Sequence record: NC_023693.1
Reading direction: 5' to 3' (one strand)
DNA from: Escherichia phage phi92
Length of the DNA stretch: 64,000 nt
Made by a program: the position numbers and the translations under genes. Below are positions 50,196 to 64,000 of this stretch, piece by piece. Below the pieces are notes generated by a model. That model was not told the DNA's origin and did no database searches. It saw only the letters and a list, made by a program, of their open reading frames with translations. The first letter of the stretch is position 1. Each line of letters opens with the position of its first letter.

Positions 50196-51386
50196 ATGGC
50201 AGCACCAAAATCATGGGAACAATATAAAGAAGAGTGTCAACCAATAGCAGAGAGTAAGCAAATCCAAATCTTAGGATGGACGGGAGAATGGAAAGGGAAC
50301 AAGACTAAACTTAAGCTATCTTGCTCTGATCATGGAGAGTGGAACACCACGAACATTAATGATTTTAAGAATGGACGTGGTTGTCCGGCATGTACAAGTA
50401 ATAAGTCGTTAACATGGGAAACAGAATTGCCGATCTTAGAAGAGATAGCACAGAAGAAGGGGTATCAAGTGTTAGGGTACGTTGGAGAATGGAAAGGGGT
50501 TAATACAAAACTTGATTTGTTGTGTCATTGTGGGAATAGATGGCAAAGTACAATTATTAAGACATTTAAACGTGTAAATGGTTGTCCACAGTGTAGAATA
50601 GAGAAGGTAAAGCAAGCCAGTACGAAGTCAGATGATGAAAGGATCGCCTCTTTCCTTGCTAAGCGGGATTATCCAGAAGGAACTATCTTTAAACGATCTG
50701 ATCGGACTACCTTGCAAGGTCGTGCAGTTTATTGGTTTGTGTATTGCCCTATCTGTGCACAAGATGAAATAACGAAAGCTGGGTTATGTAGTGGATGGTT
50801 TGAAAGTACAGCAGGGGATTTGCAAAAAGGGACTGCCGCTTGTCGTTGTAGTAAGTCCCCTAAATACACAGACGATCAGAATACATTCCGTGCAATGAAG
50901 GTATGCGAGGATAACGGTTATCAGTTTGTTGGTTGGGTTGATAAGGTAGGAACACAGTCTAAGTTTAAATATCTGTGTCCAGAACACGGGGTACAAATTA
51001 TAACATTGGGTAGTATGGTTAGGGGTCATGGATGCCCTGAATGTGCTGGTAATAGTCAACAGCAATTATATATTAACATTGTTAAAGATAATGATATTAC
51101 CGTTGCTCTTAAGTTTGGCATAGCTAAAGATAGCGACAGGCGATTAAACAGTCAAAATAGCCGTAATCTGTTTTTTATGGAGCGTATTTGTTTATATGAT
51201 TTTAGTACAGTGAAACAATGTAAGGCTACTGAAAGAGCTATAAAGAAAAAATTAAAAACTGGTATTTTAACGGCAAGAGAGTTGAAAGACGGTTATACAG
51301 AAACAGTAAGTGTTTCTGATTTGGAAAATCTTCAAAAAATTATTACACAATATGGTGGCAAATTGGTATATAGTAAGGAGGTGTAA
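50196..51386 (+). CDS. zinc-ribbon repeat protein with C-terminal T5orf172 (GIY-YIG-like) domain
   Basis: Repeated units GW.GEWKG..TKL.L.C..HG.W...GCP.C; C-terminal LYINIVK...ALKFGIAKDSDRRLNSQN. Confidence 0.5.
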   Translation: MAAPKSWEQYKEECQPIAESKQIQILGWTGEWKGNKTKLKLSCSDHGEWNTTNINDFKNGRGCPACTSNKSLTWETELPILEEIAQKKGYQVLGYVGEWKGVNTKLDLLCHCGNRWQSTIIKTFKRVNGCPQCRIEKVKQASTKSDDERIASFLAKRDYPEGTIFKRSDRTTLQGRAVYWFVYCPICAQDEITKAGLCSGWFESTAGDLQKGTAACRCSKSPKYTDDQNTFRAMKVCEDNGYQFVGWVDKVGTQSKFKYLCPEHGVQIITLGSMVRGHGCPECAGNSQQQLYINIVKDNDITVALKFGIAKDSDRRLNSQNSRNLFFMERICLYDFSTVKQCKATERAIKKKLKTGILTARELKDGYTETVSVSDLENLQKIITQYGGKLVYSKEV

Positions 51387-51938
51387 ATGCGGATTACTGA
51401 TAAGTATGTGTTCTTCTTCTCGGCAAAAGATGAATTTAGCAACTGGTATCTATCATCTTTTATTGAACCTTTAGCACCCAAGTATAATAACTCTATTACA
51501 AGTTCTGTTGAATTTACTTGTGTGGAACAATATATGATGTGGAGAAAAGCATGTTTGTTTTATGATTACAATATTGCATCTTCTATTTTAATCGGAGATC
51601 TCAGATATACAGGAGAAAAAGAACAAGCATATTATAAGCGACTAGGTAGATTAGTTAAAGATTATGATGAAGACACCTGGACTTCTTTACGGGAGAAGAT
51701 TGTCAAACGTGGTTTGTATCTTAAATACACACAAAATGAAGATCTCAAAAATAAACTTATCGCTTACGCAGATAAGGAGTTCGTAGAGGCAAGCCCCTAT
51801 GATTCTATTTATGGTATCAAAATGGGGATGTGGGATCGGGACGTGGAAAATAAGGATTGTTGGAAAGGACAAAATCTTTTAGGAAAATGGCATACAGACC
51901 TTGCTGTTTATCTAAAAACACAATCTGATATTTCCTGA
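51387..51938 (+). CDS. NADAR (YbiA-like) domain protein
   Basis: FFFSAKDEFSNWYLSSF, EQYMMWRKA and EASPYDSIYGIKMG blocks match NADAR signature positions; RBS aaggagg. Confidence 0.5.
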   Translation: MRITDKYVFFFSAKDEFSNWYLSSFIEPLAPKYNNSITSSVEFTCVEQYMMWRKACLFYDYNIASSILIGDLRYTGEKEQAYYKRLGRLVKDYDEDTWTSLREKIVKRGLYLKYTQNEDLKNKLIAYADKEFVEASPYDSIYGIKMGMWDRDVENKDCWKGQNLLGKWHTDLAVYLKTQSDIS

Positions 51939-52154
51939 TATTTTGAAAATTTTTATTTTTATAAAAAGGGGTGTGGGTTTCATGTACGGAAATTCACCCT
52001 CTGCACAGTATACCCAGAGTAAGTATTATTCTATACTCTGTTAATAAAGTATTTAATTTGTTTGTTGGACTATGGTATCTGGTTTTTAAAAGACACATTA
52101 TCTCTTAACTACTATTTATAACAGAACAGTAAAATCATTTTTATAAAAAGGACA

Positions 52155-52355
52155 AAATTATTTAAAGTTTTTACTAGATTTTTGGCTACAAATTTTGAAA
52201 ATGAAAAGTTCAAGTTTGGTCAAAATTATTTAAAGTTTTTGTACGTATTTCTATCCAGATTTTGAAAATGAAAACTTCAATTTTTTAAAAATTCCCCAGT
52301 TTATTTAAAGTTTTTTTGCCTTTTTCCGTAGAAAAATCAAAAATGAAAAGTTCAA
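52155..52355. repeat. three tandem imperfect direct repeats (iterons, about 70-75 bp)
   Basis: Each unit contains TTATTTAAAGTTTTT ... TTTGAAAATGAAAA(G/C)TTCAA. Confidence 0.6.
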
Positions 52356-52378
52356 TTTCGTGTTTTTATGGGTGTGCG

Positions 52379-52500
52379 GATGATAATCATTCTCATTTGT
52401 AAATGAGAATCATTATCATTTAATTATGTAAGTGATAATCATTCTCACTAAGAGAATGAGAATCATTAGCAAATGAGAATTTTTCTCATTTAGAGAATAA
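52379..52500. promoter_or_regulatory. cluster of palindromic operator-like sites (Fur-box-like)
   Basis: GATAATCATTCTCATTTGTAAATGAGAATCATTATC near-perfect 36-bp palindrome, plus GATAATCATTCTCA...GAATGAGAATCATTAGC and AAATGAGAATTTTTCTCATTT. Confidence 0.45.
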
Positions 52501-52753
52501 CGCGCAGGGGTGGTGTTTGTCTCGCGCTCCCGTGTCCCCTCGCCATACAATAAGAATAGCATAACCAACAACAAAAGCAAGCGATTATTTTTATCTTTAC
52601 ATTTCTTTACAAATTTATTTTAGACGAGCTACCGGCGATCAACCTTCCAACCAGTAGTGCCCTGGTATGTTAGCCCCGCCTTTACGCCGTGGGGGTGGCG
52701 CTTCCTCTTCTGTATGTAAAACAGTATAAGCCCGATCCCTGGGCTTGTCAAGA

Positions 52754-53020
52754 TTATTTTTTGTTTTCTTGCCAGGATAGGACACCTAACCAAAAATACA
52801 TGTCGCCCCGCGCCCCTGGTGGGATCTTGCTTTCCCCGCCGCCACTGCAAGCCCATAGATAACCATTTGCGAACGTATCAAAATGATCTATCTCTTCCAC
52901 CTTATGATCGCCCAGGTTGAGAACGGTTTCAACCTTTAAGCCCGTTGCGCTTGCTACCTGGTGCACCGTGCCGCCTTGCCAGCCCAATGAGTGCATGAGG
53001 TGTGAAGTAGTATTTGTCAT
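52754..53020 (-). CDS. hypothetical ORF in GC-rich island (uncertain)
   Basis: 88 aa ORF with weak RBS; local GC content visibly higher than the surrounding phage DNA. Confidence 0.25.
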   Translation of the reverse strand: MTNTTSHLMHSLGWQGGTVHQVASATGLKVETVLNLGDHKVEEIDHFDTFANGYLWACSGGGESKIPPGARGDMYFWLGVLSWQENKK

Positions 53021-53131
53021 GGTATCGCCCTTTCTTTGATGTGCGCCCTGGTTGGCGCGGTAGAAAGATAATAGCCCTTTCCTTTATAGATAGCAAGCAA
53101 AAAAGAAATGAAAAAAGATTAAAAAAAGGGG

Positions 53132-53160
53132 TTGACGTTCCTCACCTGGTAGCGTATTAT
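53132..53160 (+). promoter_or_regulatory. sigma70-like promoter
   Basis: TTGACG, 17-bp spacer, TATTAT. Confidence 0.4.
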
Positions 53161-53287
53161 TCATCTTGTCGAGGGGGGCGAGGCACAACGACAATAAACA
53201 AAAGGAGGGCGCAATGCAGGACGGGCAAAGGTGAGGATCTCCACAATCCACCGTCACAATAACATTACTTATAAAAGGTTGATAACG

Positions 53288-53392
53288 ATGATCAAGAAAG
53301 AAAACAGCTTGACGGTTGGAACGATTAACGCTATTTTGTTAGCCGTTCCAGTGTGGATCACTGTAGCAATTGTTGTTTCAATCATTCTATAA
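53288..53392 (+). CDS. small membrane peptide (34 aa)
   Basis: MIKKENSLTVGTINAILLAVPVWITVAIVVSIIL; below track size cut-off. Confidence 0.35.
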   Translation: MIKKENSLTVGTINAILLAVPVWITVAIVVSIIL

Positions 53393-54575: not shown

Positions 54576-54722
54576 ATGAAACAATATGTAATGAGTATTC
54601 ACACCAAAAACGGCGCTACTGTTACGACTCCGGCACGGTTTGCACTTGTAAACCGTTGCAAGAGACTAAAACGAGAGTTAAAAAATAACCGTGCAACGGG
54701 CTTTAAACGCTGGGGAGGATAA
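54576..54722 (+). CDS. small basic protein (48 aa)
   Basis: MKQYVMSIHTKNGATVTTPARFALVNRCKRLKRELKNNRATGFKRWGG; its end provides RBS ggagga for the next gene. Confidence 0.4.
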   Translation: MKQYVMSIHTKNGATVTTPARFALVNRCKRLKRELKNNRATGFKRWGG

Positions 54723-62547: not shown

Positions 62548-62563
62548 ATAACATTTCATACCA

Positions 62564-62589
62564 GGGCGCTTATTGCGCCCTTTCTTTTT
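62564..62589 (+). terminator. rho-independent terminator closing the early array
   Basis: GGGCGC-TTATT-GCGCCC followed by TTTCTTTTT. Confidence 0.6.
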
Positions 62590-62803
62590 ACCTAAATAAA
62601 GATGATAGCTTTTACCTATCAAAAACGTTCACCGAAAAAAGTGAATAGATCGCGGTATCGAGCTAATCAAGGAGCAGATGAACAACCATACCATGAAGAT
62701 CATAAGGCGCTTACAACGTGTTTTAGACCGCTTATTTTTAATTTCTCAATGTAACTATCGGGCAAAAACAGCCTTTTTCTTGTCTTTCCTCTTAAATGAT
62801 AAT

Positions 62804-63948
62804 CATTCTTATTTATAGCTGATTATTTATGCAATAAACTGCATAATGCAATAATGATAATCATTCTTAACTTAAGACCATCTAACCTATAAAATAATAA
62901 GCTATCTAACTAAATTAAACCTAATTATCTCACTTTTATTTATAACTTACTGTTATTATCTCATTGATAACATTGTATTAAACAACAATAACTAATATAA
63001 ATCATTACTAAGCTAACTATAATCTATCTAACCCTTAAAACTACAATTATAATCTATCAAATTGTTGCACAAAGTAACTATTAAATTGTTAGTAACATTA
63101 CTAAATAATTTACATCCTACTTATTTATGATCTAATCTTTACCTCCCTATCTATTACCTAAATAACCATTTCATGTAGTAATCATTTCATACAATAACTA
63201 TAACAAGAAATATAATTCGCAAGCGTATCATTAGCAGCCTATGCCGGACACATAGGCGGCTAATAATAACGCAACTACACACCCCACATAATAACCATCA
63301 CCGATAGTTATTATTTGTGCTTATGTAGCTTGCAACAATTGCAAGCGCAACAATATACGAGAGTATATTGTATTCCCTTACATTGTTGCGGTGCGTTATT
63401 ATTAGCTAATGTTTAGAACATTGGCTATAATATAAGCTAAATAATAAGCTATGCAATAATAAACATGGTGAATAATGACATTGATGATCATAATGCGCCA
63501 CCCTCCAGGGGGCGCTATGTGTACACAAAGAAATCTTTCTTGTCAAGAAAAATATCATCACTATTGCGCAAAATTATTTACATCTGAATAGATGATTTTT
63601 CATACTATTGCCCCCATAATTATCTTTATTTGTTACCCCTAAATATCCTATTTGTTGAGCCTACTTTCTTAAAAGCGCAATAAATCAGAATTATCTTGAT
63701 TTTTAGTCGGTTTTATAGTATAGAAAATATGTAAATGATAATCATTATCAGCTATCTTCCACGGGTGGCACTATTTCACGCCAGATCATTTCATTTGACA
63801 AGGTGTATATAGATGTTTAGACTTGCCAAGCCATTGATTTACTTAGAATTTATCTGTTTTGTTGTGAGTAGTACCTTTCTTGCTCAGAAAATAATCAAAA
63901 GTCTTATAAGTCATTGAATGATAATGCAAATGATAATTATTCTCATTG
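62804..63948. promoter_or_regulatory. non-coding AT-rich region with four Fur-box-like sites and short repeats
   Basis: AAATGATAATCATTCTTA at 62804 and 62852, AAATGATAATCATTATC at 63733, AATGATAATGCAAATGATAATTATTCTCATTG at 63916; recurring (A)TCTATCTAAC motifs; no ORF of 60 aa or more. Confidence 0.4.
63259..63406. repeat. nested inverted-repeat structure
   Basis: Exact 14-bp inverted repeat GCTAATAATAACGC / GCGTTATTATTAGC enclosing palindrome GCTTGCAA-CAA-TTGCAAGC and inverted repeat CGCAACAAT...ATTGTTGCG. Confidence 0.5.
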
Positions 63949-64000
63949 ATATTTGAGGGGGACGGTCGGCAGAAATCGGGGGGCGCTGAAAATCGCGTTA

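Follow-up and report, generated by a model that had tools for sequence, protein, structure and literature searches.

Phages of the phi92/rV5 type are common therapeutic and model coliphages, and a ~1.2-kb "non-coding" region of their genomes has hitherto been unexplained. We analyzed this region in Escherichia phage phi92, within a 64,000-nt stretch of sequence record NC_023693.1 (the window, to which all positions refer). The locus holds a small gene (ORF88), a promoter (P2) built around a terminator-like hairpin, and a ~100-nt non-coding element, read here as a small RNA, with a covarying pseudoknot and an invariant 11-nt core that Aeromonas phages share (Table 1). On the minus strand the order would be ORF88, a transcript-ending hairpin in the promoter spacer, and the ~100-nt RNA. 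The region 51900–53300 is 97–98% identical to that of Justusliebigvirus (phi92-like) coliphages such as alia, JohannJBalmer (Bas62) and KKP_3264.

The preliminary description of this DNA had pointed to a GC-rich island at about 52500–53060, and sliding-window analysis bears this out. The GC content of the island is 0.496 vs 0.378 for the whole window, the highest among all 566-nt windows taken in 10-nt steps (fraction equal or higher, 0.0003). Windows of 200 nt have GC contents of 0.455–0.555 across 52500–53099 vs 0.22–0.26 across 52000–52499; the 1-kb background lies mostly at 0.34–0.41, and the AT-rich left flank (51940–52494) has a GC content of 0.256. The sequence strings that had been quoted are found at about 52500 and 52805, and the 88-codon minus-strand reading frame exists as described. 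Its dismissal as doubtful was wrong, as the protein is conserved down to 39% identity and is under purifying selection. The placement of the island in intergenic DNA fails for about half of it, which is taken up by ORF88, a real gene.

The island is GC-rich because of what it encodes: the RNA element (GC 0.57), the hairpin in the promoter spacer, a GC block at the left end (0.65) and ORF88 (0.50) are each GC-rich. In enterobacterial phages the GC content of the RNA element is 0.53–0.67 regardless of that of the genome, and in Aeromonas-type versions it is 0.39–0.49. This richness fits selection for stable helices.

Table 1. Features at the phi92 locus, in window coordinates.
Feature	Position	Strand	Details	Basis
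GC-rich island, whole	52495..53060	.	GC 0.496	Ranks first in GC among 566-nt stretches
Conserved non-coding element, read as small RNA	52621..52718	-	Purine-rich 5' leader, H-type pseudoknot, hairpin, invariant tail	Covariance model
Pseudoknot stem S1	52685..52700	-	CGCC (52700–52697) pairs with GGCG (52688–52685); loop holds S2a, CCCC (52694–52691)	Covariation
Pseudoknot stem S2, 3' arm	52674..52677	-	GGGG, pairs with CCCC of the S1 loop	Covariation
Middle hairpin	52648..52669	-	RNA CAUACCAG ... CUGGUUG; bulged U, variable loop	Covariation
Invariant tail	52625..52648	-	GGAAGGUUGAUCGCCGGUAGCUCG; core AUCGCCGGUAG, 52629–52639	Invariant alignment columns
Promoter P2	52723..52751	-	-35 TTGACA (52751–52746), 17-nt spacer, -10 TATACT (52728–52723)	11/12 sigma-70 match
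ORF88 (phrog_19316)	52754..53020	-	88-aa all-helical protein	Homologues, dN/dS, AlphaFold
Candidate promoter P1 for ORF88	53068..53096	-	TTGCTA-17-TATTAT	9/12 match; role inferred from position
Rightward promoter	53132..53160	+	TTGACG-17-TATTAT; heads a run of small genes, diverges from the island	10/12 match
GC block	52495..52545	.	GC 0.647; conserved core GGTGTTTGTCTC	Kept in 26 distinct homologues
Two TCTTTACA boxes	52594..52611	.	Spacing 10 bp; immediately past the RNA tail	Sequence conservation
Five palindromic boxes	52381..52488	.	TGA(G/T)AATCATT(C/A)TCA, Fur 7-1-7-like; outside the island	Palindrome search
Three 63-nt direct repeats (family D1)	52155..52359	.	Iteron-like, in 25% GC DNA; outside the island	Repeat search

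Structure and promoter of the ~100-nt element

A covariance model of the element (R1) matches the window only once, at the element itself (99.1 bits, E=3e-23), and finds one match per phage locus. Under a fixed rule every sequence is parsed as S1a(4)-L1(1-2)-S2a(4)-L2(1-2)-S1b(4)-L3(6-7)-S2b(4), with loop lengths that fit a classical H-type pseudoknot. One Aeromonas-like lineage carries 52–53 nt extra within L3, which can be read as three extra hairpins, and retains S2.

Both stems of the pseudoknot covary. S1, with 97% of its cells paired, is mostly CGCC/GGCG and becomes GGAC/GUCU or AGAC/GUCU through compensatory changes in Aeromonas phages. S2 occurs in five versions (CCCC/GGGG, CUCC/GGGG, CCAA/UUGG, CCAG/CUGG and CCAU/AUGG); its position 3 is C-G in 40 sequences and A-U in 16, and its position 4 is C-G in 39, A-U in 9, U-A in 2, G-C in 1 and mismatched in 6. 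In the middle hairpin 90% of the cells are paired, and all six modelled pairs change on both sides. When 37 distinct sequences are aligned with MAFFT, paired cells make up 83.4% vs 25–45% with slid partners, and the covariation score is 0.196 vs at most 0.056; none of 500 shuffles reaches the observed score. Model-guided alignments, fitted in part by the model itself, give 86.6% paired cells and a score of 0.262 for 42 matches, and 85.9% and 0.240 for 58 matches (57 distinct rows), with slid controls at or below 0.076 in both; over all the alignments, sliding leaves 25–46% of the cells paired. Covariation supports a 5' H-type pseudoknot followed by a hairpin.

The tail is the most strongly constrained part of the element and is identical in the Aeromonas phage 2L372D group. 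No conserved pairing partner for it was found within the element in the alignment, and it is probably single-stranded. A protein-coding reading of the 130-nt element was ruled out by the 1-nt insertions and deletions that separate its homologues, and the overlapping reading frames are not maintained. A nested long-range helix proposed by RNAalifold (GGCGG/UCGCC) was dropped, its 5' arm not being kept in Aeromonas or type-B sequences.

As a small-RNA gene would, the element has a promoter of its own at a conserved distance. Of 46 distinct upstream regions of homologues, 45 retain a P2 match of at least 9/12 with a 17–18-nt spacer, and the distance from the end of the -10 hexamer to the start of the element is 0–5 nt in nearly all of them. 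The strand call rests on this promoter because the wobble pairs, which were rejected as evidence, are too weak to decide. The P2 spacer is in most cases a hairpin rich in GC, and its loops often resemble the GNRA type; the sequence of the hairpin varies by lineage while its pairing is kept. In the window, a terminator scan places a terminator-like site at 52746–52728, inside the spacer. This hairpin may be the terminator of ORF88, nested within the next promoter. Such a terminator-within-promoter arrangement, at 52723–52751 and in the homologues, is unusually compact.

The element matches no catalogued RNA family. Scans with Rfam 15 (4227 models), made at a permissive threshold (E up to 1), covered the region in the window, four divergent homologues, the metagenome homologue L191 and six weaker metagenome candidates; they returned no family match, only chance matches to miRNA and snoRNA models far below the cut-offs. 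ARAGORN found no tRNA or tmRNA in the window or in nine homologous loci. By these comparisons the element is a candidate new phage RNA family, and the comparative support for its structure is solid.

Distribution of the element and lateral exchange

The island or element is matched in 235–246 phage records of the Stephanstirmvirinae and Vequintavirinae, at the same position and between the same neighbors. A wider 1.4-kb region is matched by 138 records, and in 123 records the match spans 80% or more of the island. In Vequintavirinae of Klebsiella, Cronobacter, Salmonella, Enterobacter, Pectobacterium and Erwinia, blastn aligns a sub-segment at ~52594–52720 with 80–86% identity; in these distant phages nothing in the rest of the region aligns. 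A shorter pattern, as well as blastn, extends the distribution to the Aeromonas phage 2L372D group and to additional contigs of viral and metagenome origin. A core pattern of 24 nt is seen in phage contigs of about 145–150 kb; a host origin of the element was rejected, as among 185,579 genomes this pattern is present in only one contig, from a metagenome-assembled genome.

The element comes in two sequence types. Type B, which has another S2, another hairpin and a slightly altered tail context, is found in Klebsiella phages FKP3 and NDO71, and relatives of both carry type A; the types do not track taxonomy. In Raoultella phage Ro1 (L018, 6290–7135) the tail of a type-A copy is the exact insertion site of an HNH endonuclease ORF (197 aa, phrog_953, PHROG E 8e-79). 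The truncated type-A copy forms the 5' leader of the endonuclease gene, and behind that gene lies an intact copy of type B that has a promoter of its own. The second copy suggests that an intact element is needed. From the two Ro1 copies and the distribution of the types it follows that the locus recombines between phages and keeps one copy intact; the module does undergo some lateral exchange.

The preliminary description had offered two explanations for the island, a recent horizontal acquisition (moron) or a structured RNA. The same place and the same neighbors in 235–246 records speak against the former, whereas the covarying pseudoknot and hairpin of a ~100-nt element, with a conserved promoter directly upstream, support the latter. 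The interpretation as a whole holds in its structured-RNA part and fails both on recent acquisition and on the doubt about the reading frame. Judged by its conservation, the island has long been a module of phages of the phi92/rV5 type and is not recent foreign DNA.

Most of the distant records leave the site of the element unannotated, and what annotation the region has in related records consists of scattered "hypothetical proteins" and repeat regions. In two Klebsiella phage records, OY978796.1 (L027) and OY757067.1 (L195), tRNA and CDS features overlie the element and neighboring non-coding DNA. ARAGORN finds no tRNA at the annotated place in OY978796, and OY757067 has a similarly displaced pattern; the feature coordinates of both records appear to be shifted relative to the sequence. 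In annotation pipelines the locus should no longer stay blank or carry spurious ORFs and displaced tRNA features. Three GenBank records labelled 'Campylobacter phage', A150, A145 and B15 (MG065639, MG065645 and MG065650), are 93–100% identical to these coliphages over the island or element, and their host labels look doubtful.

Possible function of the element

The element is probably an early, stand-alone small RNA that acts in trans, its folded 5' part presenting the invariant tail to a conserved partner. Host RNA polymerase would make the RNA early from the sigma-70 promoter P2, starting near 52716. The transcript would fold into the H-type pseudoknot (S1 and S2 of 4 bp each, with an A-rich third loop) and then into the hairpin of variable sequence; the apparently single-stranded invariant tail, GGAAGGUNGAUCGCCGGUAGC, would come last. 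The folded 5' domain would stabilize and present the tail, which would bind an RNA or protein conserved across the hosts or across these phages. We favor a trans-acting RNA that presents its tail because the tail is the most constrained part of the element and has no conserved partner within it. In Aeromonas phage 2L372D, small genes flank an isolated element that has a perfect -10 hexamer, the pseudoknot, the hairpin and the identical tail and is followed ~30 nt past the tail by a bidirectional terminator hairpin; no iterons lie nearby. This self-contained unit favors an independent small RNA gene over a leader or primer tied to repeats. The data establish the composition, that ORF88 is coding, that P2 is conserved and that the helices covary; transcription, its timing, a single-stranded tail, action in trans and the partner are what we infer.

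Several observations weigh against this reading. Position 4 of S2 is mismatched in 6 of 57 distinct sequences. The model to which part of the alignment was fitted contains S2 and the hairpin, so the counts are biased towards both; the MAFFT alignment, which is independent of the model, gives an equivalent picture. The single-sequence folding energy is no better than that of shuffled sequences (z -0.74 on the minus strand), and the wobble pairs favor this strand weakly, by 4 vs 2. A scan of the window revealed no terminator-like site downstream of the element on the minus strand that would define its 3' end. Complements of the tail within the 64-kb window are at chance level, as is the best one in the E. 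coli rrnH operon (9 nt, at nt 104 of 23S rRNA). The literature on these phages holds no transcriptome, origin mapping, expression data or RNA description.

The element shares features with several known RNAs. Like the small H-type pseudoknots of the preQ1-I and SAM-II aptamers and the one at the 5' edge of the T4 gene 32 mRNA operator, it has a compact two-stem pseudoknot of ~30 nt near its 5' end, a first loop of 1–2 nt and an A-rich third loop, and it shows the structured, aptamer-like fold with covariation expected of a riboswitch or leader. Unlike these, it has no Rfam match, downstream ORF, expression platform or indicated ligand, and a hairpin and the invariant tail come next. Directly downstream on the minus strand we found no regulated ORF or expression platform; the nearest frame, a 54-aa ORF with a TTG start (52416–52580), runs across the palindromic boxes. 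The element is not riboswitch-like in its setting because no conserved ORF follows it and the Aeromonas version is followed by a terminator. With the put RNAs of HK022, two stem-loops that act on the transcribing polymerase and cause it to read through terminators into genes, the element shares covarying stems immediately downstream of a host-type phage promoter; unlike put, it has a pseudoknot, no downstream genes and, in the Aeromonas version, a terminator right after it. Its own promoter, length (~100–150 nt), structured body and very conserved unpaired segment recall bacterial and phage small RNAs that act in trans or serve as protein-binding decoys (Hfq-type sRNAs, Y RNAs, 6S RNA). The enterobacterial versions, however, lack a Rho-independent terminator with a U-tail, and the element has neither a tRNA-like domain detectable by ARAGORN nor an Rfam match to YrlA, 6S or another family.

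Origin transcripts provide another precedent: ColE1 RNA II, and the T7 (phi1.1A/B) and T4 (oriF/oriG) origins, which combine a promoter with an AT-rich segment. P2, and possibly a third promoter (P3) further left, would likewise fire leftward into AT-rich, repeat-laden non-coding DNA, and the RNA could be the 5' part of a cis-acting primer or activator of a lytic origin. Every rV5/phi92-like genome examined has the element beside ~0.6 kb of non-coding DNA that holds long repeats in threes, shorter ones and palindromic boxes. On the minus strand the RNA is not followed by an ORF, and the rV5 paper shows a 'non-coding' box on its map and leaves the origin unlocated. We nevertheless regard this explanation as unlikely. 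The association with the AT-rich iteron region, constant in rV5/phi92-like phages, is absent in the Aeromonas phages, which carry the RNA as a terminator-closed stand-alone gene with no iterons or boxes nearby; iteron sequences differ between the subfamilies while the RNA is conserved; and conservation peaks in the RNA tail, not at an RNA-DNA transition point. Watson-Crick covariation cannot separate RNA from single-stranded DNA, and the element might act as DNA: as a protein-binding site, as a single-stranded structure in replication or packaging, or as the target of a homing endonuclease, kept by gene conversion. The HNH endonuclease gene that sits exactly at the invariant tail in Ro1 agrees with a function as DNA, and some genome records begin or end near the region. 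The promoter, which 45 of 46 lineages keep at a fixed distance, and the few G-U pairs, which fall on the promoter's strand, argue for RNA, as does the third loop, since pseudoknots with an A-rich third loop are typical of RNA; homing alone, moreover, would leave compensatory changes in three helices unexplained. A function as DNA is therefore distinctly improbable in our estimate.

A small RNA transcribed in the opposite direction, or an antisense pair, would start in the TCTTTACA / TGnTATAAT region, run rightward and end at the S1 hairpin and a pyrimidine run. It would account for a terminator-like site on the plus strand (52685–52700), for extended -10-like TGTGTATAAT motifs left of the element in Vequintavirinae, and for two A-C cells of the minus strand that would be G-U on the plus strand. 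The terminator stem, however, has 4 bp only and its tail is C/U-mixed, the promoter-like motifs are weak in the window and absent in Aeromonas phages, and the plus-strand folding energy (z -0.06) is uninformative. We give a plus-strand RNA very little credence. Least credible of all is recently acquired foreign DNA whose GC content reflects a donor. The island does resemble phage morons in being a deviant, insert-like unit with its own promoter and a terminator-like hairpin; it is a compositional outlier, and its DNA aligns to that of higher-GC Vequintavirinae where the flanks do not. Unlike morons, it is not patchy among close relatives but syntenic in 235–246 records from two subfamilies, structural selection acts on the stems and hairpins that make up its GC-rich parts, and the homologues of ORF88 are GC-rich relative to their own loci in four of the five phages checked.

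If the trans-acting RNA is made and works as proposed, it would give a new, testable case in which a structured RNA serves a lytic phage at an early stage of infection, and the invariant tail offers a direct handle for a partner search. A bolder extension, to which we assign a small chance, is that the element would be the first known of a widespread, hitherto undescribed family of small RNAs in phages. The family would extend past the myoviruses of enterobacteria and Aeromonas to phage-like metagenome contigs with promoters of apparent Bacteroidetes type, and the tail (AAGGUNNAUCGCCGGUAGC) would engage a universal cellular machine or a conserved phage protein in early takeover or counter-defence.

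Metagenome contigs L124, L188, L122, L171 and L078 carry short genes in which one or two hairpins are followed by AAGGUNNAUCG(CC/AA)GGUA(G/A)C and then a run of U. L122 and L078 each have two unlike subtypes whose tails point towards each other, and elsewhere these hairpin-plus-tail genes are single. They score 24–34 bits with the model, match no Rfam family and are preceded by promoters that we take to be of the Bacteroidetes type (consensus TAnnTTTG); one of the contigs encodes a phage tail-collar protein. These genes may be distant relatives of the element.

ORF88 and the surroundings of the island

Intact homologues of ORF88 (39–99% amino acid identity) are present in Phapecoctavirus, Avunavirus, Klebsiella and Certrevirus-like phages and share an N-terminal LMxALGWQGGTVHQVAxxTGL and a C-terminal FWxGV motif. 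Pairwise dN/dS against four homologues is 0.15–0.31; to judge from these values, ORF88 is a real gene under purifying selection. Its GC content at third codon positions is 0.528, three standard deviations above the mean of the 43 long ORFs of the window (0.294, sd 0.077). AlphaFold confidently predicts five helices (pLDDT 93.7). The protein belongs to a PHROGs family of unknown function; a Pfam search gave nothing significant (best E 0.089, under the cut-off), a profile search against the PDB gave marginal matches only, with no credible sequence or fold match, and there was no match to a helix-turn-helix family profile or fold. In KB57, 4MG and Ro1 the slot of ORF88 is filled by another small gene (61–63 aa), whose product in KB57 matches DUF7170; by eye, the 4MG and Ro1 products resemble that of KB57. 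The rightward promoter motif occupies an equivalent place in KB57 and 4MG.

At the other end of the island, the GC block sits between the palindromic boxes and the possible third leftward promoter. As a second structured RNA it was rejected, RNAalifold giving no consistent fold on either strand (-1.35 and -1.5). The TCTTTACA boxes are conserved in rV5/phi92-like homologues and absent in the Aeromonas phage.

The AT-rich stretch to the left contains repeat family D2 and, in 52375–52492, pairs of inverted repeats. A Fur-type palindrome, searched as TGAGAATCATTCTCA, has 21 matches in the window vs 3.5 expected, and the five boxes differ from it by 1–2 mismatches. From the Fur 7-1-7 consensus, TGATAATNATTATCA, they differ by eye at ~1–3 positions. 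In sequence the palindromes resemble Fur boxes and are candidate Fur sites. A second large AT-rich non-coding region, 62560–64000, has Fur-like boxes at 62797, 62855, 63736 and 63931, of which that at 63736–63750 (TGATAATCATTATCA) is perfect.

The AT-rich non-coding stretch at 51925–52494 (25.6% GC) also contains GATATTT twice. KB57, CR9, 4MG and an Erwinia phage have a like layout, in which the repeats differ in sequence and, in Vequintavirinae, are rich in GATC. The repeat region matches the unexplained "non-coding" box of the rV5 map and is a plausible candidate for a replication origin or regulatory hub. Next to the non-coding region, on its upstream side, the plus strand carries at 50196–51938 a 396-aa ORF with four CapR homology repeats and a T5orf172 domain (endonuclease-like; phrog_681) and then a NADAR (YbiA-like) gene. 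The length of the first of these genes varies between close relatives. At 54576–54722 on the plus strand, a 48-aa basic ORF (MKQYVMSIHTKNG...KRWGG) has 54% identity (E 6e-12) to a protein of Aeromonas phage 2L372D. It is the only protein common to the window and the first 16 kb of 2L372D, and in both it lies ~2–3 kb or less from the RNA gene.

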